NCBI GenBank assembly: GCA_963796955.1
Contig: CAWCNJ010000011.1
Location: forward strand, 32,001 to 96,000
Reading direction: 5' to 3'
Length of the DNA stretch: 64,000 nt
Source of the DNA: Endomicrobiales bacterium
GTDB lineage: Bacteria > Elusimicrobiota > Endomicrobiia > Endomicrobiales > JALOBY01
The position numbers and the translations under genes are program-made. Under the pieces are notes generated by a model. The model was not told the DNA's origin, ran no database searches, and saw nothing but the letters and a program-made list of their open reading frames with translations. Shown here piece after piece: positions 19,012 to 55,540 of the stretch (the first letter of the stretch is position 1; every line of letters begins with the position of its first letter).

Positions 19012-22000
19012 TTAACGGATCACCATGAGCTTTTGTTTAGCGCTTATGCCGGGGCCTTTAATGTAAACAATATAGGTGCCGCTCGCCATATCTTTGGGCA
19101 GCCATTCGAAAATGCCTTCGCTTACCCCTTCCATGGTATCCTCATGGACTTGTTTGCCGCCGATAGTGAAAATACGCATTTCAAAGCGGCCTACTGAGTC
19201 GCCCTTAAAATAGATCTTAGCGACATCCCCTGAATCAGGGTTAACCGTCCCTCTTCCGGCGGCTGAACCGAGTATCTTTATAGAACCGACACCGGTCATA
19301 TCCATAACTGCCGCAGCACGGAAATTTAGTATCGTCCTTTGCTGAGTTATCAATACGGACACCGATCTCTGGGGTGAAAACTCGTACCCGGCTTTCGATA
19401 GTTGAAGAACACACCTTGCGTTCAGGCTTAATCCCGTGAGCTGAAAATTACCATTCGCATCCGTAATCGTGTTTTTTGAAACATCTCCCGATAAAACTAC
19501 CGCTACGCCGGGGACGCCAATTTCTTTTCCATCCAGCACTTGACCGGTGATGGTATATTGCACCGCAGCAGGAGCCGGCAAGGCGCCTGTAAAGTTCCAA
19601 TTTCCAATGATACCGTTCAAAGATGCCGTGCTATAGCTTACGGGCGCGAAGGTGTAACTGCCAAACGTCGCCGGTGTTACCGTATATGGATAATTCACGT
19701 AAAGATTGCTTGTAAATTGGTACGAGCCGTCGGTACCGGTTAACAGACTCACATTATCGGGAGATAGCACAACTGAGACGCCTGATAGTCCGTTAGAAGA
19801 AGCATCCCGCACATAACCACCTATGGCAAGCACTATCGGTGTCGCGTTAAAATCCCACTCCACATCGTTGGTCAGGCTTGTTGTGCTGTATTGGACAGGA
19901 GCGAACCAAAATCCGGTGTCGGCTGGTGCAACGCTAAATGACGCATTTTTCGGCAGGTTTAAAAAACTGTAGTAACCACTGCTATCCGTGCTGACCGAGC
20001 CACCGCTGCCGCCGGTAATATTAACAGTGATATTACTGACTCCTGCAGCGCCGTTCCTGACATAGCCGGTAATATTTCTTGTCTGACGCGTTCCCATAAA
20101 ATTAGGATTAATAAGGTCGCTTGTCAGAGAATTAGTGGATATGGAAACAGGGGCGAACGTATATCCGCTCAGGGTTGGTGTAACAGTGTATGCGCTGTTC
20201 TGCGAAAGACCGCTGAACTGATATGAGCCGCCCGAATCCGTGGTATCCGAGCCCTGGGCGCCGCCGGTAAGTGTCACTAGAACATCAAGTAGTGCAACTG
20301 CGGTTACGCTGTCCCTTGCATAACCGCTGATTGAAGCCGTTGCAATACTTACCGTGCCGGCAAAATTCCAGTTGCTTATGGTGCTTAACAATGCCGGCGA
20401 AGTACTTAGTTTTACCGGCGAGAACGCAAAACCCGCGCTGGAAGGCGTCACCGTGTAATTAGCCGTTGAAGAAAGAGCGTTAAAGCTGTAATTGCCGCTG
20501 CCGTCAGTTACGGTACTTTTAGATGCTCCGCCGGCAAGCGTCATTTTTACACCGGGAAATGGGCTGGCGTCAGAAGCATGCGTAACAGCGCCGCTAATGG
20601 CCGCCGTAAGTACTGTGCCGGTGAAATTCCAATTTGAAAGAGCGCCCAGGAACGTTGCCGTGCTGAAACTGACCGGACTGAAAGAGTAACCGGGCATTTG
20701 TACGGTTACAGTATAATTGCTCCCTTCCGGCAAATTGCTGAACGAATATGAACCGCCGTTAGAAGTAGTCGATCGCGACGCACCGCCTGAAAGCTGTACT
20801 GTTGCGCCGTTAAGCTGTGCGCCGCCTCCCGTTTTTACCGTACCGCTTATATTTGCCGTCTTTACGGTACCTGCAAAATTTTGACCTGTCCAGTTTCCCG
20901 TTAAAGAAGCAGTGGTAACAGAAACCGGCGCGAACGTATAGCCCGCGCTTGAGGGTGTGACAGTATACGCAAGGGATTTCGCAAGGCTGGTAAATTGATA
21001 ATTTCCTGAAGCATCGCTGATAGTAACAGCAGAAGCGCCTCCGGTAAGCTTCACGGACACTCCGCCAAGGGCCGAACCGCCGGAGGCTACCGAGCCGCTG
21101 ATAGAATAGGTTGAATTTGCCGTTACTGTTACCGATACAATGGCTGAACCTGAGTCCCCATTGCTGTCAGTTGCGAGCAGAGTAGCCGTATAGCTTCCAG
21201 CCGAACTGTACACATGCGAGGGGCTCTGGCTCGCACTTGTTCCACCATCCCCAAAAGTCCAGGAATAGCCGGTTATAGTCCCGTTCGTCGTAGCAGCGCT
21301 CCCAGTAAAGTTTACGCTCAGAGGCGCATTTCCGTTCGTAGGCGTGCCGTTTGCTGAAGCAGTAACAACTGAGACAGGATTATAAACACTGGAAGGTATC
21401 TGGTTGCCAAGGTACTCCCAGATATATTTTGTTAAGGTTTGTGCAGAGCCGTCAATTGAAGTTCCCGAGCAAAAACCTCTTGCACCGTTAATTGCCGGTT
21501 TACCCCAGTTCTGATATGAGTATGCGCTCATATATGACTGAATAATATTCTCATATGGAAACGGCCACAAAGGATTGCTCGAAACAGTATTCCAGCCAGG
21601 ATCCCCAAATAGAGAACCATCGATACCCACTTTATACAATATGTTTGGACCGATGTCTCCAGTATTATCTCCTTTGCCAGATAAATTAGACGCTAACTCT
21701 TCCCTCGGTATATATTTAATTCCACCTGTACTGTTAGACGGGCTATATATCGGGTTGAATGCATTCCCGTTGACGCTTACATAATCATTAGAACCAGCAG
21801 AAAATTGATTATATGTTGTTCCAAAAATATTATAAAGAACGTTATAATCAGATTGAACATTCCTGAAACCATTAGCACAGTTTTCGACAACACAATTTGA
21901 CGCAAATGTTATCTTATAACCCCAGTTAGCGCCTTTTGAGCAATCTATTGCATAACCACTGCTGCAATTCTTAAACAAACAATTCCTCATTATAATTGTT

Positions 22001-23064
22001 TGTAAATATGTAGGGGTACCACCGGTATACCCCTGATTATCAAAACCACCTGCTGTTCCAATTGATGCGCAGTCAATTAATGAATTGTTATAAGTCCCAC
22101 CATCCTCATGGGCATCCATTTGGGTTCCCTGCATACCCACATTGAAAGCCGGCATATTAACTTCAATACAGCCTCTATACGTTGACGTTGAACAACTATA
22201 ACTATCAGAAGTGTTAGATCCGAACCACCATCCATATCCTGTTCCTAAAGTTGATGGTGATCCATTAAATATATATTGCGTCTGATCTCCATCAACCGCA
22301 ATACAATTTTGATATTCACTATAATTTGTGCCATATAATCTAAAGGGGCTAGTTAACTGACTACCGGTATTTGATATGGATCTATCGGGTCTGCACACCA
22401 ACCTTCGACCAATGCAATAATCCGAATCCAAGAATAAAAAGAAGTAATTTGCACTTCCACAAGCGAAACAATCCTGTAACAACACATAGGACATTCCCGT
22501 TATACAAAATGCATATGAACGTCCAACATTCATATCTGCTGGTAAAAAGTTAGCCGAATCTATTGAGCCACACCTTGTAACTTTAACATGGCCGTATTCC
22601 ATAGGTGTTGGTCTCCATCCCTGAAACCCTATTCCCATGCAGGAACCACAAGCATTTACTACCGCATCCGGAGAAGAATGTTCAACCACAAAGCCATCAA
22701 TAGCCAGATAATTTGAGTTGTGAAAATCCATCGGATCATACATGTATTGCCCATCAATAACTACCATAAATGGATTAGATGACTTGATAGTTGTATAGTT
22801 GCCACCAGTACCGTTCGGAGGGCAGTTTCCATTATGATAGCTGATCATATTGTTTACCCCGGTATAAGTACCATCAGCTACTATCAGCGTATCATTCGGC
22901 GAAAGTTTCTTACATGATAACCCTATTGAACGCCATGGGGTCCCTAAACTCCCGCTTCCAGAATCTGAACCGGTCGGTGAAACATAATAGGTAGATGAAA
23001 ACCCAATTCCTATATTTAAAACGATTATAAGAAAAGAACTGGAAAAAAGCTTTGATAACCTCAT
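19012..23064 (-). CDS. Large secreted protein: beta-helix-like N-terminal domain, PKD domain, seven carboxypeptidase-regulatory/CnaB-like repeats, T9SS-like C-terminal domain
   Basis: Signal peptide; YYVSPTGSD..GS...PW..I and L.V.DGTY (beta-helix protein start); WTFGDG...PSHVY..AGSYT (PKD); seven (I)SG.V...GV.V.L.G...TD.SG.Y.F..L....YTVTP repeats; CTD ending SGTYIVYIKGPGISAKQKLMVIR. Confidence 0.8.
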   Translation of the reverse strand: MRLSKLFSSSFLIIVLNIGIGFSSTYYVSPTGSDSGSGSLGTPWRSIGLSCKKLSPNDTLIVADGTYTGVNNMISYHNGNCPPNGTGGNYTTIKSSNPFMVVIDGQYMYDPMDFHNSNYLAIDGFVVEHSSPDAVVNACGSCMGIGFQGWRPTPMEYGHVKVTRCGSIDSANFLPADMNVGRSYAFCITGMSYVLLQDCFACGSANYFFLFLDSDYCIGRRLVCRPDRSISNTGSQLTSPFRLYGTNYSEYQNCIAVDGDQTQYIFNGSPSTLGTGYGWWFGSNTSDSYSCSTSTYRGCIEVNMPAFNVGMQGTQMDAHEDGGTYNNSLIDCASIGTAGGFDNQGYTGGTPTYLQTIIMRNCLFKNCSSGYAIDCSKGANWGYKITFASNCVVENCANGFRNVQSDYNVLYNIFGTTYNQFSAGSNDYVSVNGNAFNPIYSPSNSTGGIKYIPREELASNLSGKGDNTGDIGPNILYKVGIDGSLFGDPGWNTVSSNPLWPFPYENIIQSYMSAYSYQNWGKPAINGARGFCSGTSIDGSAQTLTKYIWEYLGNQIPSSVYNPVSVVTASANGTPTNGNAPLSVNFTGSAATTNGTITGYSWTFGDGGTSASQSPSHVYSSAGSYTATLLATDSNGDSGSAIVSVTVTANSTYSISGSVASGGSALGGVSVKLTGGASAVTISDASGNYQFTSLAKSLAYTVTPSSAGYTFAPVSVTTASLTGNWTGQNFAGTVKTANISGTVKTGGGAQLNGATVQLSGGASRSTTSNGGSYSFSNLPEGSNYTVTVQMPGYSFSPVSFSTATFLGALSNWNFTGTVLTAAISGAVTHASDASPFPGVKMTLAGGASKSTVTDGSGNYSFNALSSTANYTVTPSSAGFAFSPVKLSTSPALLSTISNWNFAGTVSIATASISGYARDSVTAVALLDVLVTLTGGAQGSDTTDSGGSYQFSGLSQNSAYTVTPTLSGYTFAPVSISTNSLTSDLINPNFMGTRQTRNITGYVRNGAAGVSNITVNITGGSGGSVSTDSSGYYSFLNLPKNASFSVAPADTGFWFAPVQYSTTSLTNDVEWDFNATPIVLAIGGYVRDASSNGLSGVSVVLSPDNVSLLTGTDGSYQFTSNLYVNYPYTVTPATFGSYTFAPVSYSTASLNGIIGNWNFTGALPAPAAVQYTITGQVLDGKEIGVPGVAVVLSGDVSKNTITDANGNFQLTGLSLNARCVLQLSKAGYEFSPQRSVSVLITQQRTILNFRAAAVMDMTGVGSIKILGSAAGRGTVNPDSGDVAKIYFKGDSVGRFEMRIFTIGGKQVHEDTMEGVSEGIFEWLPKDMASGTYIVYIKGPGISAKQKLMVIR
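19320..21110 (-). repeat. Seven degenerate ~85-aa tandem protein repeats (stalk)
   Basis: Repeat starts YSISGSV, ANISGTV, AAISGAV, ASISGYA, RNITGYV, LAIGGYV, YTITGQV; boundaries approximate. Confidence 0.75.
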
Positions 23065-24086
23065 TTCTGCCCTCTGACAAAGCGATGTTTTTTAATAAAA
23101 CTAAGAACGTTTTTTGATGAATGTTTTGTAAAATTGTTATACATAAAATAATCGAATGAAAGGTTATTAAACAAAGGCATCCTATTATACAGCAATTTCA
23201 ACAAGTACATAGGCGGGGCATCAACAAGTAGTACTGGATTTTTTTGCATCAGCCACAACACTTCGGAAAAACCTGATGGCATCATTATTAGGAGATCGCA
23301 CTTTGACATGATTTCTGCTTCAGCGGCAAAACCTAAACCTTTCAGATATGTACATTTATCATTGGGTATGTCTAACCTAGCCTCAGTATATTTGTCACGG
23401 TAACTTCCTGCTTCGAAACCATTTTTTTCAAGTGTTTTGAGCGTATCCCCATCATGCCGTTCTCGATTCATGCCGGCAATTATTATGTGGGCATTATACT
23501 CTTGGATCAGCCTATTAAATAAATCACTTTTGCTTTTTAAGATCGCTTGTGCTGAACTCTGGAAATATGGCCTAATGGCATCCTGGCTACTATTTCTGTA
23601 CCTCCAGAGGTATCCTATGGTTATATTCTTTTTAAACAAATCGTCACTGATATTATTAAGCATCATACACTCTGGGTAAAACTCTTTACCAAGGTCACTG
23701 AGCTCTAAAGCATAATTTTTCTCTCTAAAATCGTATTCCCTAATGGACTGCCATGGCTTAATATTGGTCTTAAAATTGAACTTTATCTTAATACTTTCTG
23801 GAAAATCGTGTATAAACCTGAGCTCATTATCTTTAATTTGAAACTGGAAAAATTCATCCACGCTTCTTGAAAGTATTTCATCGATTCCACAAACTTCATC
23901 AAGCATATTTAGATTATAGTGACTCATTATCAGCTTCTGCCGGTTATCTTTAAAGAATCCAATCCACTTTGTATCACCTCGCGTATTTCTTATCTGTTTT
24001 ATTGCAGACAACTGTTCATAACAGTCCCCAAGAGCCCCATGTAATATTGTACCTATCGTTCTAGTCATGTGTAGTTTCTCCTTCAA
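23061..24086 (-). CDS. Hypothetical protein, possibly GT-B (GT9-like) glycosyltransferase
   Basis: N-terminal HGALGD and C-terminal IMSKCDLLI..PSG resemble GT9 motifs; EPS context. Confidence 0.5.
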   Translation of the reverse strand: MKEKLHMTRTIGTILHGALGDCYEQLSAIKQIRNTRGDTKWIGFFKDNRQKLIMSHYNLNMLDEVCGIDEILSRSVDEFFQFQIKDNELRFIHDFPESIKIKFNFKTNIKPWQSIREYDFREKNYALELSDLGKEFYPECMMLNNISDDLFKKNITIGYLWRYRNSSQDAIRPYFQSSAQAILKSKSDLFNRLIQEYNAHIIIAGMNRERHDGDTLKTLEKNGFEAGSYRDKYTEARLDIPNDKCTYLKGLGFAAEAEIMSKCDLLIMMPSGFSEVLWLMQKNPVLLVDAPPMYLLKLLYNRMPLFNNLSFDYFMYNNFTKHSSKNVLSFIKKHRFVRGQK

Positions 24087-24094
24087 TATTACAA

Positions 24095-24727
24095 TTAGCC
24101 GTCTAATCCTGTGAACATTAGCCCTTTATCTCTCAAAGTGTCTATGATTACACCTAGCGCATCAACTACGTATTGATTATCATCATGAAACAGTATAATA
24201 TCGCCTGGATTTACATTATCAATGACTCTATTTATTATATTTTGCGAACCAGTTTTCTCAAAATCTCCGCTTGAAAGGGTCCACAGAACTGTACAAATGC
24301 CATTCATCACACAAATTGCAAATTCAAGAAATGATATTTGGCCATAAACAGGCCTGTAAATATCTGTCTTTATATTAAATTTCTTAAATATTTGCATTGA
24401 ACGATACACTTCATTCATTTGTTCCCGATTGCTATATGTATTCTTCCTATTATGCGAATATGAATGCATTCCCACTGAATGCCCTTCATCGATTATTTGT
24501 TTTACAAGCCCTGGATTCGCTTCCATAGTTTGCCCGATCAAAAAAAATACAGCCTTTGCATTTTTTCTTCTCAAAACATCTAGTATGGGCAAAGTAAATA
24601 CAGGGTCTGGCCCATCATCAAATGTTAAAACCACTGCGTTATTTTTGCGTTTTACTGAAAAAAGGATAATGCTTCTTGTAAGAACCGCTTGCAGGACGTT
24701 TTTAATCAATCTTTTCATCTTACTCAT
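24095..24727 (-). CDS. Polysaccharide deacetylase (CE4/NodB)
   Basis: LTFDDGP, GMHSYSH, YRPVYG, IILFHD; start set at ATG 24727 (ATGA overlap with upstream GT). Confidence 0.9.
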   Translation of the reverse strand: MSKMKRLIKNVLQAVLTRSIILFSVKRKNNAVVLTFDDGPDPVFTLPILDVLRRKNAKAVFFLIGQTMEANPGLVKQIIDEGHSVGMHSYSHNRKNTYSNREQMNEVYRSMQIFKKFNIKTDIYRPVYGQISFLEFAICVMNGICTVLWTLSSGDFEKTGSQNIINRVIDNVNPGDIILFHDDNQYVVDALGVIIDTLRDKGLMFTGLDG

Positions 24728-25875
24728 AGCACAGTTCGGTTTGTATATTGTGATAATATTCCATAAAGTCGATCCGCATTTTCTTTCCAAGACAGTATCT
24801 CAGGCAGAATCGAAATTTCATTACTGTTCCACTTTTTGCTAATACAATATCGCAATCCATTTGACAATGCCTCGATGTCACCAGGCATTACTAAAAGACC
24901 TGAATTTTCACTTTTTAAAAGCTCAGGGATACCTCCTACTTTCGTCGCTAATACTGGTATACCGCATGAAAGAGCCTCGATCACAACATTCGGGCACCCT
25001 TCAAACAAGCTCGGAAGACAAAAAAGATCTGAAGCATTCATCCAGTCTGATATTTGATCTTGTTTGATCCTACCTTTAAAAAATACTTTATCATTAACTG
25101 CTAATTGATCGGTTAACTCTTCCAATTCCTGCCTCAACTCACCATCGCCTATCAAATACAATTGAAGATCTTCTTGTGCTCCGACCACTTCTTTGAATGC
25201 CTTAATTAGAAATGGAAGGCCTTTTGAGTAAGTGAGATTTCCTACAAACAATAGTATTTTACCCGTACCCAAACCCAATTTGTTACGGCATCCATTTTTA
25301 TCCTTAACTCTAAAAACAGTTTTATCAACTCCATTCAACAAAACAGTGACATTACTCTCAGAAACTCCGCATTCAACCATTCTATGCTTCAGTGCCGCGC
25401 TTACCGAAATCACATGATCCGCTTTAGAGAGGCAAAAAAAGATAAGTTTTCTACGTAGCAACCTTTTAGCGTACACATTAATGTCAGATCCTAACGCGCC
25501 AATTACTATAGGTTTCTTTAAGAATCTAGCTATCAGCCAGCTACCAAAACCATCTGGGTAAACCCATGGTGCATATATAATGTCAAATTCAAAGTCCTTA
25601 TATATTTTTGCAACAAACATCACAAGTGATAAGAAAAAGAAAAACCCATATAATGATCTACCGATCTTAGGGAACATAAAATATCTCGGGTGATACACCT
25701 CTATGCCATCGATTAGTTCTTTTCTAGGCAAGCCTTTCAGCCTGTACCAAGGCAGGGGCGAAATAACTCTTACATCGCTAATCCTTGATAGTTCGAAACA
25801 CTGGTTCCTATTGTATACACCCCTTGTAGGCTCTAGGGAGTTCGGATAAAGGTTAGTAATAACAAGTATTCTCAT
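24724..25875 (-). CDS. Glycosyltransferase family 4 (TuaC-like)
   Basis: ITNLYP, YPDG, GSDIN, LPSLFEGCPNVVIEALSCG. Confidence 0.9.
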   Translation of the reverse strand: MRILVITNLYPNSLEPTRGVYNRNQCFELSRISDVRVISPLPWYRLKGLPRKELIDGIEVYHPRYFMFPKIGRSLYGFFFFLSLVMFVAKIYKDFEFDIIYAPWVYPDGFGSWLIARFLKKPIVIGALGSDINVYAKRLLRRKLIFFCLSKADHVISVSAALKHRMVECGVSESNVTVLLNGVDKTVFRVKDKNGCRNKLGLGTGKILLFVGNLTYSKGLPFLIKAFKEVVGAQEDLQLYLIGDGELRQELEELTDQLAVNDKVFFKGRIKQDQISDWMNASDLFCLPSLFEGCPNVVIEALSCGIPVLATKVGGIPELLKSENSGLLVMPGDIEALSNGLRYCISKKWNSNEISILPEILSWKENADRLYGILSQYTNRTVL

Positions 25876-26441
25876 AACTTAATGAAGTCAGCACTCCCCT
25901 GGTAATTTATAACTTTAGCAGGTATTCCGGCTACGACTGCGTTATCTGGGACATCCTTAGTAACTACTGAATTCGCCCCTATTGCTACATTATTTCCAAT
26001 TGTAATTTTGCCAATTACTACAGCCGAAACTCCAATGAAAACGTTATTTCCTATAACTGGGCAGCCTTTTCTTTCTCCTCTTCCACCCTGTCCTATTATC
26101 ACCCCAACACTAACATTACAATTAGAGCCTATTACGGTTTTGCCATTTATTACCAGCATGCCTGCATGTCCGATATAAAAACCTTCACCGATAGAAACTT
26201 CAAATGGTATGTAAATACCGGTAATCAATGAAAAAATCAAATGTGTTAATCTTGTTATTAATTTAAGCATTTGCGCAAGCACTGGCACTTTAAAATTATT
26301 TCTAATCCATTTACCAAATCTGTAACTCATTACAATCCACAATGAGGGGTTGAAAATAACCAAGTCACAAAGCCCGCTTATACCAGTTGCTTGCTCTATG
26401 AGCATATATCTTTTTATGTCCTGTTTTACATATTTAAACAT
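25872..26441 (-). CDS. Serine O-acetyltransferase-like (CysE/WcaB-type) hexapeptide acetyltransferase
   Basis: IGEGFYIGH, PVIGNNVFIG, GANSVVTKDVP...VAGIPAK. Confidence 0.85.
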   Translation of the reverse strand: MFKYVKQDIKRYMLIEQATGISGLCDLVIFNPSLWIVMSYRFGKWIRNNFKVPVLAQMLKLITRLTHLIFSLITGIYIPFEVSIGEGFYIGHAGMLVINGKTVIGSNCNVSVGVIIGQGGRGERKGCPVIGNNVFIGVSAVVIGKITIGNNVAIGANSVVTKDVPDNAVVAGIPAKVINYQGSADFIKL

Positions 26442-27561
26442 GTTTTGATTTTCCCTTATATATATTACTTATCATGTTCTCATAATTTTTAACCATTATA
26501 TCCAAGCTCCGGTGCTGTAAAACATAGAGTCTTCCGTTTTCACCTAACATTTTAGCTTTATCCTTGTTGCTGAGCAATTCGTTAATTTTTTCAGCGAATG
26601 TCTCAGGATCTCCGGCCTTGGCAAAGATCCCATTTACATTTTCTGTAACTAGCTCTGTATTACCCTCAATTCTTGAAACTACTACAGGCTTAGCAGTTGA
26701 CATAGCTTCTAATATTGTGTTAGAAATTCCTTCCAATGTAGAGGGAAGTGCAAAAACATCAATAGCGTTTATCACTCTATCAACATCCACCCTTGGTCCC
26801 GCGAAGATGGCTATATCTTCCAAGTGAAGCCTGAGCACTAAATCCTTTAAGTTTTGCTCTTCTGGCCCAGAACCAACAATCAGCAACTTAATATTTTTTA
26901 TTCTGTTCTTTAATATCCCTACAGCTTTTACTAATGTTGCTACATCTTTAGACAGTGTCAAACGACACAGACATCCTATCACTTGCCCGTTAACAGGAAA
27001 CCCAAACTCTTTTCGTATATCTGCTCTTGAAACCAAATCTGGTTTGAATTTAACTGTGTCGACACCATTTAAAATAGGCTGAATTTTTTTTGGATCTACG
27101 CCAAGTCTTTTAACCAATTCTGTTTTTAAATCACTTGAGACTGGCACTGTCAAATCAATCATTTTGTACAACGTTCTCTGAGCCAACGTCCTTTTTTTTG
27201 TTTCTGTATAAATAACACCATGTTCTCCATTGATTATAACGGGCACTCCAGCAAGTTTACCACCGATAGTCCCTGAGAACAAACCACAAGCCCATCCATG
27301 AGTATAGACAACATCTATTTTGTTGTCCCTACATAACCTAGCAATCTTGAATGAAGTAGACAGGTTAAACCCAGGTTTTTCATTTATATTTATTACCTTT
27401 ACATTGTCCTTGATTCTTGAACGAAATGGTCCATCACCCCTTAAGCAGCAAATATAAAAATCAAATGATTCAGGGTTCATATTATTAACAAGATTAACAA
27501 CCCCATTTTCTAGGCCGCCAATACCCATTGTCTGCAACACCTGCATTACACGTATCTTCAT
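26434..27561 (-). CDS. Glycosyltransferase family 4
   Basis: GGLENGVVNLVN, GEHG, NGVD, LPSTLEGISNTILEAMS; start set at ATG 27561. Confidence 0.9.
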   Translation of the reverse strand: MKIRVMQVLQTMGIGGLENGVVNLVNNMNPESFDFYICCLRGDGPFRSRIKDNVKVININEKPGFNLSTSFKIARLCRDNKIDVVYTHGWACGLFSGTIGGKLAGVPVIINGEHGVIYTETKKRTLAQRTLYKMIDLTVPVSSDLKTELVKRLGVDPKKIQPILNGVDTVKFKPDLVSRADIRKEFGFPVNGQVIGCLCRLTLSKDVATLVKAVGILKNRIKNIKLLIVGSGPEEQNLKDLVLRLHLEDIAIFAGPRVDVDRVINAIDVFALPSTLEGISNTILEAMSTAKPVVVSRIEGNTELVTENVNGIFAKAGDPETFAEKINELLSNKDKAKMLGENGRLYVLQHRSLDIMVKNYENMISNIYKGKSKHV

Positions 27562-31087: not shown

Positions 31088-31114
31088 TACTTATGTCCCT
31101 AAGAGGAATTTGAC

Positions 31115-32209: not shown

Positions 32210-32224
32210 ATTGTATTTTGTAAT

Positions 32225-34399: not shown

Positions 34400-34415
34400 G
34401 GTTCAGTCCTATTCC

Positions 34416-36704: not shown

Positions 36705-36825
36705 ACATTCCTTTTCGATTCAATCATCGGTCTTCAATCATAATTCTTTGTTTCAACAGGCAGAAGCCCAAAGGCCCTCAACCACCCGCCCCAGCTTTAC
36801 GGTTCGTTTTCAGAATTGTTAGGTG

Positions 36826-44381: not shown

Positions 44382-44382
44382 G

Positions 44383-46110: not shown

Positions 46111-47113
46111 CTAACGGGCCCCGCGGGCGAACAACACAGTTTTAAAGGTACTGAAAAATATTTTCATGTCCAGAAGCAGACACCGCTTCTCAAGATATAT
46201 AAGATCATATTTTACCTTCTTTTTAGTATCGTCTATGCTGGAGGCGTAACTATATCTTACCTGTGCCAGGCCCGTGAGGCCGGGTTTTACGTTGCAGCGT
46301 TTTCCGAAGGAGTTGATACTTTCATTAAGGCGCTGGACAAATTCCGGGCGTTCCGGCCGCGGCCCGATAACGCTCATGTCACCCATGAGAATGTTGTAGA
46401 ATTGCGGCAATTCATCCAGGCGGGTCTTTCTGAGAAATTTACCGAGGCGCGTTACCCGATTGTCGGAAACTGAGGCCCAGACGGCTCCCTTTGCTTCGGC
46501 GTCATTGCGCATGGTGCGGAACTTATAGATGCGAAACAACGAACCGAGCTTATTATCGTCCCTTCGGTCATCCGAACGACGCCCCTTTTCGCTGCGTCTG
46601 CAGCCGGCGATACCCCTGCGGTTAAGGCCGACCCTGATCTGGCTGTAGAGCACCGGACCCGGAGAATCAAGTTTAACGAGAATGGCGACAATCAGCATTA
46701 CCGGCATGGTCACAATAAGAGCCAGGGAAGACAAGACAATGTCCAGTACCCTTCTTAATTTGGCGTACGAGGTAACGGATATCTGGAAGAAAAGCGCGGC
46801 AAGACCGATAAGCAGCAGTATAGCTTCGGCGGAACGAAATGATTGTTTTTTTCGCGGGACGAATTTTGGCCGGAGATCGACGCTCCCCGAACCGGGTATT
46901 TATGTCTTTTTGCAGACTGGCGACCACAGGATCAGCGGCACATTTTGAACGGGCGTTAAGGTCTGCGGAATTTTCGCTGGCACAGCCGAAATAAGTATCA
47001 ACCAGTGAAAGATTGGCCGGCCGCGCATTGTCAGATGCGAAAGCGCAAATATAAAAACCGCAAAAACCGTATATCAGACCCAATAGAACCTTGCTTAAAA
47101 GCACCGGTTTCAT
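46111..47113 (-). pseudogene. Priming (undecaprenyl-phosphate) sugar transferase, apparently frameshifted
   Basis: C-part: RRVLDI, DSPGPVLY.Q.RVG, KFRTM, DELPQ, GPRPERP, KPGLTGLAQV. This frame is open from about 46899 with no start codon until inside the TM; it joins the ATG-47113 ORF (GGAGAGG RBS) if one A is removed from the A7 tract at 46846-46852. Confidence 0.75.
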
Positions 47114-47160
47114 ATTTTTCCTCTCCCCAAGCGCAACCAATTCAACAGTGTTTTGCGTGT

Positions 47161-47329: not shown

Positions 47330-47638
47330 TTACTGCCCATCCTGCTGATTGATCTCACCCTGGGCAGCGCTATTGGGAGGACTTATTTTTTTTCCGTATT
47401 TCCCCCGGTTTATTACCACATAGATGCTTTTGATGGACAATTTAAATTTCTTTGCCAGCTGCTTGACGGTCATCCCCTGTTTACGAAAGCATATTATCGA
47501 TCTGTTCCGTATACCAAAATACTCCCTGTCGTGGGTGCCGTTGCTGCCGTATTTCGGCACCCAGACCCTTTGGCCCCCGCATTCCATAACAAGTTTTTTG
47601 AAGTTCTTTTTGTCCAGTATTTCAGAAAGAAGTTTCAT
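47330..47638 (-). CDS. Mor/C-family (phage Mu-type) transcription activator-like protein
   Basis: KLV..CGG..VWVPK, RN..I, and C-terminal HTH GMTVKQLAKKFKLSIKSIY. Confidence 0.7.
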   Translation of the reverse strand: MKLLSEILDKKNFKKLVMECGGQRVWVPKYGSNGTHDREYFGIRNRSIICFRKQGMTVKQLAKKFKLSIKSIYVVINRGKYGKKISPPNSAAQGEINQQDGQ

Positions 47639-47936: not shown

Positions 47937-47953
47937 ATAGCCTGCTTATGCTA

Positions 47954-48898
47954 TTACTTTGAAGTTTGTTTGGGAGAACCGAACCGTACCCCAAGAGTGA
48001 GCCTCTGTATATTGTCTATATACGAGGTTTGGGTGAAGGACAGTCCGAACATATAGTTGCCGAAATTCACACTGCCGCCGTACGTCAGGGACTGTTGTGA
48101 ATCCTGCACCGAGCAATCCGCGTTCACACTTACCGCACCGTATCTGAGCGATGCCCCGGTGGTGTAGGTGCTTTTGCCGTTAACCAGGCTGTTGGCTGCG
48201 CCGGCGCCCATGGCGAGCGACATATGCTGGCCCAGACTGGTGTTATACAACACCGCCAGTGAACCGGTCTGCGGCAGGGGATCGCTCTCATCTATGAACT
48301 TTGTCGCCGTTCCGCTGTTAAGCAGTGCCGCCGACAACATAACATGCGGGCTCAGCTCCAGCATGGCGCCGATATCCGCCGCGTACGCTTTCGCTGTCTG
48401 CGCCTCCGCTATCTGGGAAGAGGCGGCTTTGATATTTATACCTCCGTATAAATTGTTGCATAGCTTCCTTCCGTAGGCGAACATCGCCATGCTGTCTTTT
48501 TCCAGAGAGACGGTCTGGGTCTGCATGGTGTTATTGTCGACCCAGTTGAGGTCCACGGAGCCGGCGTCATAATACGCCGCGCCAGCCATTACCTCGCCGC
48601 CCAACATAGGGCGGCCGTACATTATTCTGGTAAGTCTGTCATCGGCAAAGCCGGATTCTGAAGCCAATTCAAGTTCATGAAGTTTGTTAACCCCAAGATA
48701 GGCAGGGTTGTATAGAACCCCGCTCAAACTTCCGCAGGTCTTAGACTGTGAAAGCATTCCTTCGGTGTTAAGCTCCCTCACCTTTTCAAGCAGCACCCAT
48801 CCTGGATTCGCGCTGGCAAATACCGAGCCGCAAACCGCTACCGTTAAACCGAATACCACTACCGCTACCATCCAACCAGATCTTTGCTTTTTGAACAT
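47954..48898 (-). CDS. PorV/PorQ-like outer-membrane beta-barrel (paralog of 37928-39073)
   Basis: Signal peptide; GVLYNPAYLG, YYDAGSVDLNWVDN, AYAADIG, DPLP, ends LGVRF plus short tail. Confidence 0.7.
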   Translation of the reverse strand: MFKKQRSGWMVAVVVFGLTVAVCGSVFASANPGWVLLEKVRELNTEGMLSQSKTCGSLSGVLYNPAYLGVNKLHELELASESGFADDRLTRIMYGRPMLGGEVMAGAAYYDAGSVDLNWVDNNTMQTQTVSLEKDSMAMFAYGRKLCNNLYGGINIKAASSQIAEAQTAKAYAADIGAMLELSPHVMLSAALLNSGTATKFIDESDPLPQTGSLAVLYNTSLGQHMSLAMGAGAANSLVNGKSTYTTGASLRYGAVSVNADCSVQDSQQSLTYGGSVNFGNYMFGLSFTQTSYIDNIQRLTLGVRFGSPKQTSK

Positions 48899-49071: not shown

Positions 49072-50370
49072 TTAAAGCCGGTGAATATTTTTATTTACAA
49101 TGCCTTTTGTCGCATTCCTGCTGTCTAAAATCAACCTGGCTTCCTTTGAGATCTTTACATAATCCAGATCCGAGTGATCGGTGATTATTATCACGATGTC
49201 ATAGGTATTGATCGCGCCCAGATCCTTCTGGGACCGGTAGGTAGTATTTTCCAGCTTGAATTGGGAAATATGCGGATCGTAGTAATCCACATCTCCTTTC
49301 CGCTCCAGCAACAGCTGCAGCACGTCGAGGGCCGGCGACTCCCGTATGTCGCTGACATCTTTTTTGTAGGCGACCCCCAGCAACAGTATCTTCGAGCGGC
49401 TTATGCATTTGCCCTGCTCGTTCAGCACAATACTGAGCTTATCCACCAGATGGTCGGGCATGCGGGAGTTCATCTCGCCTGCCAGCTCTATGAACCGGGA
49501 ATAGAAATTCAATGTTTTCAGCTTCCACGACAGGTATTGCGGGTCCAGGGGGATGCAGTGACCGCCGATACCGGGCCCCGGATAGAACGGCATAAAACCG
49601 AAGGGCTTAGAGGCCGCCGAATCTATGATCTCCCACACATTCAGGTTTAATTTATCGCACATCAGCGCGACCTCGTTTACCAGCGCGATATTTACCGCCC
49701 TGAACGTATTTTCCAGCAGCTTGACCATTTCGGCGGCTTCCGTCGAAGAAACGGGGATCACACGGACGGCTATTTTTGAATATACCGCCGCGGCCAGGGT
49801 GCAGCACAGTTCCGTTATACCGCCGACCACCTTCGGCGTGTTGCTGATGTTATATTTTTTGTTGCTGGGGTCCACCCGCTCGGGGCTGAAGGCAAGGTAG
49901 AAATCACTGCCGCAGGACAAACCGTTCTTTTCCAGCATGGGCATTACCAGGTCTCTCGTCGTGCCGGGGTAGGTCGTTGACTCCAGCACTATCAACTGGC
50001 CGGCCCTGAGGCCCGCGGCGATCTTTTCGGCGGCGGACACTATGTAGGAGACATCCGGGTCTTTAGATTTACGCAGCGGTGTGGGCACGCAGACTATGAT
50101 GACATCACGGCCGCTCAACAAACCGAAATCCGCCGTTGCAGAAAGCAGTTTTTTATCTACCAGACCGGCAAGCACGGCGACGGGGACGTCTTCAATGTAG
50201 GATTCTTTTTTATTGATACGCTCCACCTTGCTTTTATCAACTTCGAAACCCATGACCTCAAATCCCGCCCTCGCGAACTCAACGGCAAGCGGCAGCCCCA
50301 CATACCCAAGCCCTATAACACCTATTTTCGCGACTCGTTCCTCGATCCGTTTTTGCAATTCTGTTGACAT
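49072..50370 (-). CDS. UDP-N-acetylhexosamine 6-dehydrogenase (WbpA/WecC-like), intact copy
   Basis: GLGYVG, CVPTP, FSPER, KLLEN, GGHCIP, YKKD..D.RESP, D.RN. Confidence 0.92.
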   Translation of the reverse strand: MSTELQKRIEERVAKIGVIGLGYVGLPLAVEFARAGFEVMGFEVDKSKVERINKKESYIEDVPVAVLAGLVDKKLLSATADFGLLSGRDVIIVCVPTPLRKSKDPDVSYIVSAAEKIAAGLRAGQLIVLESTTYPGTTRDLVMPMLEKNGLSCGSDFYLAFSPERVDPSNKKYNISNTPKVVGGITELCCTLAAAVYSKIAVRVIPVSSTEAAEMVKLLENTFRAVNIALVNEVALMCDKLNLNVWEIIDSAASKPFGFMPFYPGPGIGGHCIPLDPQYLSWKLKTLNFYSRFIELAGEMNSRMPDHLVDKLSIVLNEQGKCISRSKILLLGVAYKKDVSDIRESPALDVLQLLLERKGDVDYYDPHISQFKLENTTYRSQKDLGAINTYDIVIIITDHSDLDYVKISKEARLILDSRNATKGIVNKNIHRL

Positions 50371-50388
50371 GCCCGGTTCTCCTTTGCT

Positions 50389-53300
50389 CTATTTTATTAT
50401 AGCTATTTTTTTCTTCGCGTTGATGCCGGGGCCCTGCACATAGACCACATAGCCGCCGGAGGCCGCGTCGGCGGGCACCCACTCGAACATACCCTCGCTG
50501 ACATCATCCATACTGGTGCCCCACACCTGCCGGCCGCTCAAGGTAAAGACCCTGCATTCGAAACTCCCGACGTCAGAGCCCTTGAAATAGATGCGCGCCG
50601 TGTCCCCCTTCGACGGGTTAAGGATTCCCTTGCTTTCCGGCGGGCCGACCACCTTCATGTCGCCCTCCGCAACATTCGCCGAACGCTATCTCTCCTTCTT
50701 CCGGCGATCTCCAACGGCTGTAGCGGGTTTCGGCAGCCGCCTCGTTGGAATAGCCGGATGCGGCAATAGAGTTGTACGCCTTAAGCCGGTACGTGTAGCG
50801 GGTGCCGGGATAGAGGCCGCTGTCGGTAAAGGCGATGGTATTCGGCTGCAGCACCGCCCGCTGGACATAGCCTGTCTGGGTATTTTGCATCCGCTCCAGC
50901 ACAAATCCCGTTTCATCGGTCGCATTATCCTTCCAGGAAAGCTGAATGGACGTTCTGGAAATAGCCGTCGCCGATAGATTTGTGGGGGCGCCCAGAACGT
51001 AGGGCAGGGTTGCCGCTATCGCGCTGTTCGAATAGCTGGAATCCGCAAGGCTGTTGTACGCCTTGACGCGGTAATAATACGTGGTCCCGTAGTTAAGGCC
51101 GGTGTCGGTAAAACTGATACTATTGGCGGCCGGGCCGGCTATCTGGGTAAAACTGTTTTGATCGAACCCGCGCTCTATCCTAAAGCCGTCTTCATTGGCG
51201 GCGTTATCAACCCAATTAAGCACGATAGATCCGGAAGTCTGGGCAACAGCCACCAGGTTCGTCGGGGCGTTAACCGGCGATATTCTGGTGGTCCCGACGG
51301 CAAAGTTCGAATAAGGGGAATCGGTAAGGCTGTTATAAGCCTTTACCCTGTAATAATACGTTGTCCCATAACTCAGGCTGCCGTCCATAAAAGTTGTCGC
51401 ATTGGGACCGGTAAGGCCTATTTGCGTGAAATCGCTCAAGTTAACGCTGCGCTCTAGCTTAAAGCCGCTCTCATTATTTGAGTTATCCGTCCAGGACAAT
51501 GCTATCGAACCGGTCGAAAGCACCGTAAGGGCAAGGCTTGATGGCGCGTTGATGGTGACCGGTTGTGTTACCGCGAAGGCCGAGTTAGAATACACCGAAT
51601 CCCCTGCGGCGTTCGTCGCTCTGACCCGGTAATAGTAGGTGGCGCCGTTACTGAGGGAACCGTCGCTGTACGTGAACGCGTTCGTGCCCACACTCGCGAT
51701 CTGCGTAAAGCTTCCGGTATTCGGCCCCCGTTCTATTTTGTAGCCGGTTTCGTTAATCGCATTATCTATCCAGCTCAGACGTATGGAGCCGGTGGACAAT
51801 GCAACGGCCACAAGGCCGGTAGGCGCGGCTGGCACCGTCGGCGGCGGAAGCGGCGCGGCGGCGATAGTGAAGTTGTAGGAGTCCTGCGGCATACTGTTAG
51901 CCGGGGTGGCGATATCCTGCGAATTGATACTTACGCTTACGGTGGAGCTATAGGCGTACGGTGAGGTTGTGTACTTTATAAGATAATCCGAAGGCGAACC
52001 GGTAACAACGGTATTGCCATAGGCAGATGGATTAGCGCCGTTATAGACGGTAATCCCGTTCCACTTTCAGGATCGTATAGGCCAGGTTCACGCCCGACTG
52101 GGTATCGCTCAAGTGAAAGCTGATGCTGGTCGTGGAAGAGACATTTACCGCGCCCTTCGCCGGGCTGTAGCCGGAGGCCGAGGGAGGTGTCGTGTCTCCT
52201 GAAGTGGTGCCTCCAAGGTCGGTAGGCCAGTTCGCGGGCAGCGTGCACAGGTACACTTCGCTCCTGCCGCTTGAATTACGCCAGTTGCCGCCCCACCAGA
52301 TCTTGGTGCCGGCATAATCCATCTGCGCGTTCGGCTGCTGGTAATAATAGATCCCGCCGCTGATGTTGGCGGTATTCTGCGTATACGACACGCGCCATAT
52401 CCTCGGCTTTACGCTGCCCGTCGACGGTGTGCCTGTCCAGGAGGCGTAATGCCGCAGATAATATTCGTCTCATCCAGCTCATGCGCCCAGATCTGGTTAT
52501 ACGACCAGGCGCTGTTATCCTGCGCGTACGTGGAAACGAACTGCCAGCCGTGCTTGTCCGTGTATGAGAACAAACAGTTGCCGTTCCATCCCAGGCTGCC
52601 CTGATCGTAAATATCGAAACGTTCGCCGGTGTCGCATCTGGTGTATGCGATGTTATCGCCGTCCAGGCAGGTGAAGACTTCGTGGCCTTGCGTCGTCCAA
52701 CCGAAATTTCCGTGCGGGATAGCCTGCGCGCACCGGTGCCAGGTTGAGAAATTCCTGGTATAAATATCGGAGGCGGCACGTTCCGAGCTGTCCAAAGCGT
52801 ACCAGTTGATCAACACATAATTGCCGCTGGGCGAGATCATGGTCCCTTTTATCGCCGCGACCGAACCGAGACTTTTCGATGAGACGACGGTATTGCTCAC
52901 CATGTCGTAAACGAAGACGTAGTCCTGCACATCCTGCGAGCCGTTAGAATGCTGGATATAGAAAGCCCAGTACCTGCCGTCCGTCGAAGAGCCGCCGTAT
53001 TCGTGCGAAAGGATATAGTGCATGTTCGTGCCGTTCGAGTTGCTGTCGGTGGCGGGCGTCATGGTCGGAAAATCGGTATAGAAATCATGCTGCAATCCTT
53101 CTTCCTTGGTCACCACGTCAAAATATCTCATCTGCATGTGCTTGCGGTAGTACAGGCGCGTGTTGTGATTACCGGTACGGTCCCATCTCGGCTCAGGGTC
53201 CTGGCTGTTCCACCAGGACAAGGGGGAACTATTTTTCCCTGCATGGAGATCGGCGATAAATACGCCGTTAATGTCGTAGAGCTGGTAACCGTAAGCGGCG

Positions 53301-53614
53301 ATACCGGGCACGCTGTTAATACCGTAGAGCATGATGCGCGTTCCATCATTTGACACCGGGTTGTACGTGTTGTAGCCGCAGCCCACGCCGCCGTTTGACG
53401 GTATGGAAGGATTATCCACCGCGATGTTGGTGAACCTGGTTATGGTGGTGTTGTAGGTACTGTCTATGAAAGAAGCGCCTTTGGCCGGTTGGGATTGCGA
53501 GGAATACGTATAGAGGGTATCGCCCAGTGTGTATGAGAATGAAAATGCCATGCCCGGCAGTAACATCAGCCAGGCGGCCGCCAGGGCCGCCTTTCGTAAA
53601 AAATATATATTCAT
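50389..53614 (-). pseudogene. Large secreted protein (unknown N-terminal domain + Ig-like domain + four FN3 + T9SS-like CTD) broken by at least three frameshifts
   Basis: ORFs 52409-53614, 52041-52391, 50618-51892 and 50389-50658 join into one ~1070-aa protein when indels near 52463, 52061 and 50682 are corrected; N-part collinear with paralog 53726-55540. Confidence 0.8.
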
Positions 53615-53654
53615 AACTACTCCTTTTTCCCGATATCAATGCCGGAATGCACCT

Positions 53655-53683
53655 ATTATATCCTGAGCTATTTTCAGCCGCAA
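53655..53683 (-). promoter_or_regulatory. Possible promoter for the 50389-53614 gene
   Basis: Minus strand TTGCGG-17nt-TATAAT. Confidence 0.45.
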
Positions 53684-53725
53684 TGCTCCCTGTACACGGA
53701 AAACTATCCTGTATATGCCTGAAGC

Positions 53726-55540
53726 TTATTTTAGTATCGCCAGCTTCTTTTTCGCCTTCAAACCTGGGCCGTTCACATACACCACATACCCGCCTGAGGG
53801 CATATTTTTGGCCGTCCATTCGAACATGCCTTCGCTGACATTATTCATGACGTCGGTCCAGACTTCCACGCCTGACAGGGTAACGATCGTGCATTCAAAT
53901 TTGCCCGTGCCCGAACCTTTGAAATATATCCTGGCCGTATCGCCTCGGGAAGGGTCTATTATTCCCCTGTTGCCCTTTGGCCCTACCACTATCGCCTGGC
54001 CTTCGCGTACGAAGGAATCGGAAGGAGTGGTATTATCATTCGCGTTGATGCCCGTACCCGTACCGGTATCGGTGGCCGTGCCGGTGCCGGAACCCGTACC
54101 ACCCACGGTACTGGTACCCGTACTTACCTGCACAACACCGCCAAGGTCGGTGTACCAGTTTACCGGCAGGGTGCACATATACACTTCGCTCCTGCCGCCT
54201 GAATTGCGCCAGTTGCCGCCCCACCAGATCCTGGTGCCTGCATAATCCATCTGCGCGTTCGGCTGCTGATAATAATAGATCCCGCCGCTCACATTCGCGG
54301 CGTTCTGTGTGTACGTTACGCGCCATATCCGCGGCTTTGTGCTGCCGGTCGAGGGACTTCCCGTCCATGAAAGGTAATGCCTTAAATATTTCGTCTCGTC
54401 CAGCTCATGCGCCCAGATCTGGTTATACGACCAGGCGCTGTTATCCTGCGCGTACGTGGAGACGAACTGCCAGCCGTGCTTGTCCGTATACGAGAACAAA
54501 CAGTTGCCGTTCCACCCCAGGCTTCCCTGATCGTAAATATCAAAGCGTTCGCCCGTATCGCAGCGGGTAAATGCGATGTTATCGCCGTCCAGGCAGGTGA
54601 AGACCTCGTGGCCCTGCGTCGTCCAGCCGAAATTCCCATGCGGGATAGCCTGCGCGCACCGGTGCCATACCGAAAAATCGCGCGTGTATATGTCGGAGGC
54701 CGCCCGTTCCGAGCTGTCCAGAACGTACCAGTTGATCAACACATAATTGCCGCTGGGCGAGATCATGGTCCCTTTTATCGCCACGAGCGAGCCAAGGCTT
54801 TTAGTTGAGACCACGGTATTATTGACCATGTCGTAGACGAAGACGTAGTCCTGCACATCCTGCGAGCCGTTAGAATGCTGGATATAGAAGGCCCAGTACC
54901 TGCCGTCCGTTGAAGAGCCGCCGTATTCATGCGAAAGGATATAGTGCATGTTCGTACCGTTCTGGTTGCCGTCAGTCGCCGGCGTCAGGGACGGAAAATC
55001 ATTGGTAAAATCGTGCTGGAGCCCTTCTTCGTGCGTTATGACGTCAAAATATCTCATCTGCATATGTTTGCGGTAATACATACGCGTATTGTGATTGCCA
55101 GTGCGGTCCCATCTCGGTTCCGGGTCCTGGCTGTTCCACCAGGCGAACGGAGAACTATTCTTCCCACCGGCGAGGTCGGCGATGAAATTGCCGTTGATAT
55201 CGTAGAGCTGATAGCCGTAAGAAGTGATCCCCGGGACGCTGCTGATGCCGTAGAGCATGATGTGCGTTCCGTCATTTGAGACGGGGTTGTACGTATTGTA
55301 GCCGCAGCCTACGCCGCCGTTCGACGGTATCGACGGGTTGTCCGCCGCGATGTTGGTGAACCTGGTTATCGTAGTGTTATACGTGCTGTCGACATACGAA
55401 CCGCCTTTGGCCGGCTGGCTCTGAGAAGAATAGGGATACAGCGTATCGCCCAGTATATATTGGAACGCATATACGCCTGGATCTATAAAAACGAGAAATG
55501 CCGAGACCGCGAAGAACCAGCGTGTACTATTTTTTAGCAT
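53726..55540 (-). CDS. Secreted protein: uncharacterised (beta-propeller-like) domain, Gly/Thr linker, T9SS-like CTD
   Basis: Signal peptide; S.DG/SP.G blade-like motifs (SNDGTH, STDGRY, ISPSGNY); GTGSGTGTATDTGTGTG linker; CTD ending SGGYVVYVNGPGLKAKKKLAILK. Confidence 0.75.
   Translation of the reverse strand: MLKNSTRWFFAVSAFLVFIDPGVYAFQYILGDTLYPYSSQSQPAKGGSYVDSTYNTTITRFTNIAADNPSIPSNGGVGCGYNTYNPVSNDGTHIMLYGISSVPGITSYGYQLYDINGNFIADLAGGKNSSPFAWWNSQDPEPRWDRTGNHNTRMYYRKHMQMRYFDVITHEEGLQHDFTNDFPSLTPATDGNQNGTNMHYILSHEYGGSSTDGRYWAFYIQHSNGSQDVQDYVFVYDMVNNTVVSTKSLGSLVAIKGTMISPSGNYVLINWYVLDSSERAASDIYTRDFSVWHRCAQAIPHGNFGWTTQGHEVFTCLDGDNIAFTRCDTGERFDIYDQGSLGWNGNCLFSYTDKHGWQFVSTYAQDNSAWSYNQIWAHELDETKYLRHYLSWTGSPSTGSTKPRIWRVTYTQNAANVSGGIYYYQQPNAQMDYAGTRIWWGGNWRNSGGRSEVYMCTLPVNWYTDLGGVVQVSTGTSTVGGTGSGTGTATDTGTGTGINANDNTTPSDSFVREGQAIVVGPKGNRGIIDPSRGDTARIYFKGSGTGKFECTIVTLSGVEVWTDVMNNVSEGMFEWTAKNMPSGGYVVYVNGPGLKAKKKLAILK

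Follow-up and report, generated by a model that had tools for sequence, protein, structure and literature searches.

Type IX-like cargo genes and PorV-family barrel genes within a surface-polysaccharide locus of an Elusimicrobiota bacterium

Introduction

The described systems closest to the genes reported here include the Bacteroidota type IX secretion system (T9SS; 6H3I, 8GL6), which has a SprA pore of 2,403 residues, one shared PorV barrel, GldK/L/M/N, PorU, and cargo that ends in an immunoglobulin-like (Ig-like) C-terminal tail with a beta3-beta4 glycine loop and a basic C-terminal strand. In PMC11285876 (2024), T9SS genes are stated to be absent outside the Fibrobacterota-Chlorobiota-Bacteroidota (FCB) phyla. 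Cargo that stays uncleaved on its own barrel has been shown for PG1035-PorP and SprB-SprF (PMC9143113) and proposed for PorZ-PorQ (PMC10202324), and the outer-membrane route of PEP-CTERM proteins is given as unknown in PMC7468200. We analyzed a stretch of 64,000 nucleotides (the window; positions 32001-96000 of contig 11 of an Endomicrobiales genome) in which genes for three cargo proteins with a common T9SS-like tail and for three PorV-family barrels lie in a polysaccharide cluster of the Wzx/Wzy type. The explanation that we favor, with a probability of about 0.68, is that cargo-plus-barrel cassettes from a reduced type IX-like route, one used across the genome, were taken into this cluster, and that glycan-binding-like cargo is displayed uncleaved on its own barrels.

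The source genome (working label G000; G066, G122, G134, G248 and the like are relatives, and L-numbers are fetched loci) comprises 2.1 Mb in 11 contigs and is 81% complete. As the original prediction, made from the DNA letters, had supposed, the lineage is not Bacteroidota: it belongs to Elusimicrobiota, a phylum outside the FCB group, with G248 in the same order (Endomicrobiales). A SprA homologue was nearly universal in this phylum, together with many tail/barrel pairs, and the motor and sortase were not found, which contrasts with the statement in PMC11285876. A literature search of main texts, in which subscription journals were mostly uncovered, found no published description of this Elusimicrobiota system. 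The matched tail/barrel pair and the wza-linked barrel clade described below are real and testable, and a dedicated polysaccharide-attachment system is not supported.

Cargo proteins and their common tail

The three cargo genes and the tail used in structural modeling were as follows.

19012-23064, minus strand: cargo 1, 1,350 residues; signal peptide, right-handed beta-helix, PKD domain, seven carboxypeptidase-regulatory-like repeats and tail (Pfam)
19015-19281, minus strand: tail of cargo 1, a type-A-like T9SS C-terminal domain; TIGR04183 22.0 bits; copy used in the co-fold
50389-53614, minus strand: cargo 2; signal peptide, propeller-like domain, Ig-like domain, four FN3 repeats and tail (50392-50658)
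53726-55540, minus strand: cargo 3, 604 residues; signal peptide, propeller-like domain, Gly/Thr linker and tail (53729-53995)

The expectation that three signal-peptide proteins share a tail of about 90 residues was borne out: the last 89 codons of cargo 1, 2, and 3 aligned with 47-53% pairwise identity and matched the predicted residue pattern. The signal peptides were called by eye from the translations. When scored on TIGR04183, as had been proposed, the tails of cargo 1, 2, and 3 reached 22.0, 15.9, and 15.4 bits, respectively, all under the cut-off of 23. Cargo 2 had a signal peptide and tail as predicted but was not a single gene frame as deposited, with frame changes near 52460, 52060, and 50700; its orthologue in G248 (L046) was unbroken over 1,317 codons. 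The tail subtype occurred in 18 genes of 9 of the 251 phylum genomes at E 2e-20 or better, and among its approximately 90 representatives at 50% identity the domain stood at the very end of nearly all. The Pfam Por_Secre_tail (PF18962) cut-off was passed by 4 of the 64 subtype members scanned and that of TIGR04183 by one relative, and the best match of the subtype in the PDB was the C-terminal domain in 8GLK (E 0.088).

The heads of the cargo proteins differed. The helix of cargo 1 showed a PL9/Pel9A-like fold: its ESM Atlas features were at 0.96 to Pel9A-like/NosD helices, its profile matched 5OLQ, 3VST, and 1RU4 over the first 50-114 positions only, and PF22842 was found on 9 of 15 homologues. 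The propeller of cargo 3 was at 0.95 to unnamed or WD40-like clusters in ESM Atlas, the nearest named cluster being oligogalacturonate-lyase-like (0.86-0.87, a lead only), and a search of the PDB with the propeller profile gave no meaningful match. The propeller-like domains of cargo 2 and cargo 3 were 85% identical in DNA over 1.3 kb. Other cargo on the same tail subtype included subtilases (3 of 64 scanned), a C25 peptidase, propellers, and beta-helices. The C25 peptidase domain was in G011:C55 (L051:9723-12617), adjoining a barrel of the 37928 clade described below.

PorV-family barrels matched to the tail

Three PorV/PorQ-like barrels had been predicted in the locus, and all were recovered.

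37928-39073, minus strand: PorV/PorQ-family 14-stranded barrel; NF033711 E 2e-17, NF033709 E 2.7e-12; Pro/Lys-rich C-terminal extension
40513-41499, minus strand: PorV-family barrel of a separate clade; NF033709 E 6e-22; start codon overlaps the wzc stop at 41496-41499
47954-48898, minus strand: second, more diverged barrel of the 37928 clade; NF033709 E 2.7e-12; 34% identical to 37928

All three scored under the 90-bit cut-off of NF033709 (PorV/PorQ family), which 8 other genes of G000 exceeded; automatic names at NCBI already label Elusimicrobiota proteins as "PorV/PorQ family". The locus thus holds two barrel clades, 37928/47954 and 40513, and the former had an SH-aLRT support of 99 in a quick tree of 83 barrels. 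The model of barrel 37928 (pLDDT 90) was closest in fold to PorV (Foldseek E 2e-13; best match 8GL6), with a VIA-align Z of 30.7 compared with 27.9 for FadL, and no PDB sequence match to the profile of its clade was obtained at E 10. For the 40513 profile, PorV was the only PDB sequence match (E 2e-10) and also ranked first by fold. It is extremely improbable that the barrels transport small molecules in the manner of FadL and have nothing to do with the tails: FadL was the second-best fold of 37928 and 40513 had a weak Toluene_X match (E 2.5e-5), but both modeled barrels were closer to PorV in fold, the 40513 profile found PorV alone by sequence, barrel and tail genes adjoined one another throughout the genome, and the tail co-folded with 37928. 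The predicted PorV-family identity therefore stood, and a FadL identity was largely refuted by sequence and fold.

Three lines of evidence matched this clade to the tail subtype. First, a 37928-clade barrel was the direct neighbor of a subtype gene in 7 of the 8 other genomes carrying the subtype. Second, over 70 adjacent pairs, tail identity tracked barrel identity (Mantel r 0.63; largest of 5,000 shuffles, 0.14). Third, the proposed co-folding of tail and barrel gave, for the tail at 19015 with barrel 37928, an ipSAE of 0.92, with 0.00 for the best of three controls; the runs agreed in at least 89% of contacts with partner pLDDT of at least 88, and of 157 solved complexes, 116 attained the mark used, as did 2 of 215 mismatched pairs. 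The modeled interface involved the outer loops of the barrel and tail residues 38-45, 64-69, and 82-89, which include the beta3-beta4 loop and the C-terminal strand; both are essential in Porphyromonas (PMC11285876). The matched tail subtype and barrel clade form a small, testable system for cargo selection by a PorV-type barrel.

A genome-wide route with a SprA-like pore

Searches of G000 with our own profiles found 22 tailed genes and 22 barrels. A barrel gene lay within 600 bp of 14 of the 22 tailed genes, compared with a mean of 0.57 and a maximum of 6 in 100,000 random draws. A single SprA-like pore of 1,820 residues was encoded on another contig (G000:C8:81443-86905), beside lptF/G-like genes. 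The only PDB match of a profile built from 21 orthologues was SprA (E 1e-31), and against TIGR04189 the protein scored 157.7 bits (E 2.4e-46), under the cut-off of 200. The SprA-like protein was present in 217 of the 251 phylum genomes and in 187 of the 196 high-quality ones.

The original prediction had noted the absence of exosortase, PEP-CTERM tails, and T9SS core genes from the window. Whole-genome searches of G000 likewise found no exosortase, PEP-CTERM motif, or PorU catalytic domain, nor GldK/L/M/N, the positive controls for GldL, GldM, and GldN being silent as well; SprA was present outside the window. GldK was not found in G000, and two partial matches far under cut-off were obtained among 31 genomes. 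No PorU catalytic domain was found in G000, where the PorU model matched only tail regions; likewise, no C25 domain was found in this 81% complete genome by a search that detected one above cut-off in 2 of the 251 genomes.

The system shares with the Bacteroidota T9SS (6H3I, 8GL6) a SprA homologue, PorV-fold barrels, a tail modeled on the outer loops of the barrel, and the Ig-like form of that tail with its glycine loop and basic strand. It differs in the length of SprA (about 1,800 residues compared with 2,403), in having 22 barrels instead of one shared PorV, in the lack of detectable GldK/L/M/N and PorU, and in belonging to a phylum outside the FCB group. We consider that the route works like a T9SS translocon with dedicated carriers and is not a member of the canonical T9SS, because neither PorU nor the motor or ring turned up in the searches. 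It lets one ask whether the SprA pore works without the GldLM motor.

An open frame of 8,846 codons ending in a tail was observed at G000:C6:114803-141340, followed by a barrel gene with a TPR-like extension.

Display of cargo on its own barrel

In the explanation that we favor, the three cargo proteins would cross the inner membrane by Sec export on the strength of their signal peptides, and the folded tail would enter the single SprA-like pore, whose homology is observed and whose use here is presumed. A barrel from the clade matched to the tail, 37928 or 47954, would then bind it through its outer loops; the pairing is an observation and the binding a model. The tail would remain uncut, because PorU was not found, so that cargo may stay on its barrel at the surface, as does PorZ on PorQ and SprB on SprF. 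From their folds and context, the beta-helix and propeller heads, carried on Ig/FN3 stalks, might bind or trim the polysaccharide of the locus non-covalently.

As in PorZ-PorQ, SprB-SprF, and PG1035-PorP (PMC9143113, PMC10202324), a cargo gene is clustered with its own barrel gene. Those three pairs have an uncleaved tail (proposed, for PorZ-PorQ) and are anchored by binding to the barrel; in the present case we infer the retention. The SprB-SprF and PG1035-PorP pairs, with their type B C-terminal domains and PorP/SprF barrels, differ from the type-A-like tail and PorV/PorQ-family barrels found here.

Several points weigh against this explanation. GldM was detected in 0 of 251 genomes at E 1e-4 (with one partial match of 14.6 bits in G000), and GldL and GldN in 0 of 5 genomes each, in searches whose positive controls were also silent; the 81% completeness of G000 limits every claim of absence. 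Profile alignments showed no catalytic motif in the beta-helix or propeller heads. The passing co-fold may reflect likeness to solved PorV-tail complexes such as 8GL6, and its set held no non-cognate barrel, so that specificity is outside its reach. The co-variation of tail and barrel can equally be explained by inheritance as one cassette. Within the window no cargo gene directly adjoins its barrel, the gaps being 1.5, 4.8, and 14.8 kb, and cargo 2 and several neighbors are frameshifted as deposited. Finally, a candidate for processing of cargo is the M6-family protein near sprA.

This last protein (G000:C8:77455-79164; L004:7456-9162) carries a tail and an M6-family metalloprotease domain above cut-off, and lies between a barrel gene and lptF/G-sprA, three genes from sprA. 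In several relatives, tailed genes of similar size were seen a few kilobases from sprA. With such a peptidase, the barrels could be shuttles only, with cargo passing through the SprA-like pore, being cut by a peptidase other than PorU, and being released into the matrix. In line with this alternative, PorV acts as a shuttle in Bacteroidota (PMC10202324), the window has two barrels for three cargo genes, and the fourth subtype gene of the genome has no barrel within 52 kb. Retention is nevertheless fitted better by the genome-wide pattern of one barrel per cargo family, and the long Ig/FN3 stalks fit tethered display, so that we regard a pure shuttle as quite unlikely and prefer retention on the barrel.

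Barrel 40513 and the polysaccharide export genes

Barrel 40513 follows the export genes of the cluster, listed here.

41496-42263, minus strand: Wzc-type tyrosine autokinase domain; fused to the co-polymerase in G066, G122, and G248
42247-43656, minus strand: polysaccharide co-polymerase (chain length determinant, wzz); top match XrtA-system TIGR03007, under cut-off
43656-44420, minus strand: short Wza-type export lipoprotein; likely start 44381; C-terminal amphipathic segment

The predicted translational coupling of a barrel to the Wzc kinase was found as an overlap of the wzc stop with the 40513 start at 41496-41499. The 40513 clade comprised 7 copies in 5 of the 251 genomes (E 8e-91 or less, next best 1e-51; at most 8 candidates were scored per genome), and all 7 lay within two genes downstream of wzc or wza. 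In G000 such a barrel stood directly after wzc twice, and in G066 after a gap of 530 bp; the two copies in G248 and the one in G122 followed wzc and a protein of 113-123 residues consisting of a signal peptide and tail, and the G134 copy began 4 bp after wza on a 9.6-kb contig where no other polysaccharide gene was recognized. The tail-bearing neighbor had been lost in 4 of the 7 copies and the wza/wzc link in none. All 5 close Wza orthologues had a 40513-clade barrel within three genes, and each of 18 more distant wza loci, a selection out of about 150 listed matches, lacked one. One of these 18 (L173) had a barrel of another clade 2.7 kb away, which was not counted as polysaccharide-linked. 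A single-sequence search with 40513 at E 1e-30 found only G000 among 121 genomes. In a metagenome scan, the 40513 profile found two short contigs, in each of which a GNAT gene came next and the upstream context lay beyond the contig.

Three inserts and a GAD/GAE end were present in 8 of 8 members of the 40513 clade and in 0 of 12 other aligned barrels. The model of 40513 had 14 strands and a mediocre pLDDT of 61, and by strand counting the inserts were on the same side as the termini. In such barrels the side of the termini is periplasmic. The model suggests, then, that the clade-specific inserts point to a periplasmic partner, plausibly Wza or Wzc, and the wza-linked clade offers a concrete candidate for a connection of protein display with polysaccharide export.

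It is tentatively possible that barrel 40513 works with the polysaccharide export channel, its inserts docking on Wza or the Wzc co-polymerase; variants in which a small tail-only protein is placed at the polymer exit (a Wzi-like retention), or in which export is merely assisted, would be compatible with the explanation that we favor. The linkage of all 7 copies to wzc/wza, the contrast between close and distant wza loci, the inserts, and the failure to find the 18-stranded BBP2 barrel (PF10082) in G000, G248, and G066 (it was found in G122 and G134) are in its favor. On the other hand, the 5 genomes belong to one order and probably hold one inherited locus, so that the synteny amounts to one event, and the Wza of the locus retains a C-terminal segment with a weak alignment to the Wza pore helix (i-E 0.11) and may therefore need no barrel. 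The model of 40513 is also of limited quality. The composite outer membrane polysaccharide export (OPX) protein/beta-barrel translocon EpsY-EpsX and Wzi likewise join, within a Wzx/Wzy locus, an outer-membrane barrel gene with a short OPX gene, but the known barrel partners of OPX proteins are open and 18-stranded (PMC9601211), in contrast to the 14-stranded PorV fold of 40513, and the OPX protein here may keep a Wza-like C-terminal helix, by that weak alignment. A bolder version, which we consider unlikely, is that a PorV-family barrel was re-purposed through its periplasmic inserts as a subunit of the Wza-Wzc export machine, that motor-less type IX-like display became coupled to polysaccharide exit, and that this coupling allowed loss of PEP-CTERM/exosortase from the locus.

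The usual cargo of the 40513 clade is a tiny signal-peptide-plus-tail protein, which is missing at 40513 in the window; candidate roles of such proteins are those of a cap, adaptor, or lectin. Small proteins with little beyond a signal peptide and tail were seen directly upstream of barrel genes at L095:3503-3844, L094:1053-1550, L159:1276-1647, and L013:6339-6722, and likewise in G000 at C4:168310-168882 and C4:174865-175272. A second wzz-wzc-barrel unit was located past the right end of the window (G000:C11:94000-104650), where it heads the upstream part of the cluster; its barrel is a paralogue 62% identical to 40513, its wzz/wzc genes are in three frames, and the contig ends there. A further wza-wzc locus of a different type (G000:C8:348244-360700; L177) was 3.4 kb downstream of a tail/barrel pair, which lies a little beyond the stretch retrieved and was not counted as polysaccharide-linked.

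Exosortase genes and the question of dedicated sorting

Two further genes of the cluster bear on its history.

44383-45264, minus strand: TPR lipoprotein; C-terminus about 90 residues shorter than that of the G066 orthologue
46111-47140, minus strand: priming sugar transferase with an exported N-terminal domain; in two frames

For Wza, the co-polymerase, kinase, ligase, and sugar transferase, the XrtA-system models were the best or near-best matches, under cut-off; the export and assembly genes resemble those of PEP-CTERM/exosortase (XrtA/EpsH) loci, but no exosortase (PF09721) and no PEP-CTERM motif (TIGR02595; whole genome) were found in G000. The same searches found exosortase in G066 and G122, with 3 and 4 PEP-CTERM motifs, respectively, and G248 also lacked both. 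In the orthologous locus of G066, two PEP-CTERM genes, a full TPR lipoprotein gene, exosortase, and EpsI were found, the last two between the others and wza; G122 showed the first part of this gene order up to the contig end. The sugar transferase orthologues of G066 and G122 had a PEP-CTERM motif between the exported N-terminal domain and the transferase domain (L092:17823-19301; L182:4790-5623), and exosortase might cut the N-terminal part of the transferase itself in these genomes. Because exosortase and PEP motifs are present in the G066 locus and gone from G000 and G248, and the TPR gene is shortened in G000, the locus is an exosortase-type polysaccharide locus from which the exosortase system was lost in some lineages with tail/barrel cassettes already beside it. 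Relatives with and without exosortase provide a natural comparison.

The original prediction had gone further and proposed a sorting pathway encoded by the locus that exports proteins into the exopolysaccharide or attaches them to it. We weighed this in the form of a dedicated pathway in which the tail would be cut and cargo linked covalently to the polymer, in place of PEP-CTERM/exosortase. Some observations are in line with this. The polysaccharide region of contig 11, 2.8% of the genome, held 3 of the 22 tails and 4 of the 22 barrels (binomial P 0.022 and 0.003), although the region was chosen after the fact and the values are inflated by duplicates, paralogues not being independent. All 4 subtype genes of G000 adjoin surface-polysaccharide genes, 3 in this locus and 1 directly after csaB (polysaccharide pyruvyl transferase), and the exosortase of G066 is missing at this position in G000 and G248. 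However, four parts of the proposal were not supported. The genes are mostly scattered despite the regional excess: tailed genes outside the region number 19 of 22 and barrels 18 of 22, and the only SprA-like pore is on another contig, which largely satisfies the refuting condition that the original prediction had set for itself. Of the 9 subtype genomes, only G000, G066, and G248, which represent three families within a single order, showed polysaccharide genes around the subtype; BLAST to window genes, which could miss unrelated polysaccharide genes, recognized none in the remaining 6, and contigs G134:C132, G180:C114, and G072:C18 end close to the subtype gene. In those 6 genomes the subtype and its barrel clade occur without recognized polysaccharide genes nearby; elsewhere the subtype carries subtilases and a C25 peptidase. 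Co-occurrence of tail subtype, barrels, and wza, a check proposed with the original prediction, held for the 37928 clade with the subtype and for the 40513 clade with wza/wzc, but not for a general polysaccharide context. Attachment to the polysaccharide lacks the PorU-type sortase, which was not found, and replacement of PEP-CTERM is contradicted by G066, where both systems share one locus. Because the cassettes coexist with exosortase there, they are an addition and not simply a substitute. Taken as a whole, dedicated sorting with covalent attachment is highly improbable, and we prefer non-covalent display by cassettes of the genome-wide route.

Only a few genomes, all of one order, show the polysaccharide link, and what is tied to polysaccharide loci is the cargo heads, not the tail subtype: cargo 1 shares the PL9-like beta-helix head with its G066 and G248 orthologues, and the propeller-like head occurs in cargo 2, cargo 3, and G248. 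The fourth subtype gene of G000 (C3:143515-146344; L005) encodes a 583-residue protein that is a propeller paralogue of cargo 3.

Layout of the locus and other genes

Nearly all genes from 14 kb to the right end of the window are on the minus strand and form the Wzx/Wzy polysaccharide cluster, which includes the following features.

23061-37836, minus strand: low-GC block; epimerase, GNAT, deacetylases, glycosyltransferases, Wzy-like polymerase/ligase (29894-31087), Wzx flippase (27558-29006)
39185-40482, minus strand: second copy of nucleotide-sugar dehydrogenase (ugd); frame change near 39365; upstream of barrel 37928
49072-50370, minus strand: nucleotide-sugar dehydrogenase (ugd); between cargo 2 and barrel 47954
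55527-63627, minus strand: upstream polysaccharide genes; MBOAT acyltransferase and partner, glycosyltransferases, second flippase

The GC content of the glycosyltransferase/flippase block was 34-39% (window 22001-36000) compared with about 51% for the genome, which suggests an exchanged repeat-unit cassette. Barrel 47954 is one gene downstream of cargo 2, and the order cargo-ugd-barrel was also found in G248. The wzz and wzc genes are split in the window and fused in three relatives (G066, G122, and G248). Assembly error is a plausible source of the frame changes in the locus, because a GAPDH-like gene elsewhere in G000 likewise changes frame. A script for frameshift rates flagged 3 genes out of 73 beyond the region and none of the 29 within it, but the visible breaks of the locus escaped it, and it was too insensitive for a comparison.

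No Rfam match was obtained in the window. A small gene resembling Mor-family regulators (47330-47638) is upstream of the sugar transferase, with an orthologue in the same place in G066, and a 724-residue protein (32225-34399) is a fusion of a polysaccharide deacetylase domain with another domain that has no Pfam match. The 1,146-residue protein at 10633-14073 is presumably a GH94-type glycoside phosphorylase, judging from its motifs, and 362-4737 holds what we take, from the neighboring translations, to be a proton-translocating pyrophosphatase-like gene and, next to it, a gene for a membrane-bound hydrogenase/complex I-like subunit. On the plus strand, an exported FecR-domain protein of 533 residues is encoded at 5038-6639.

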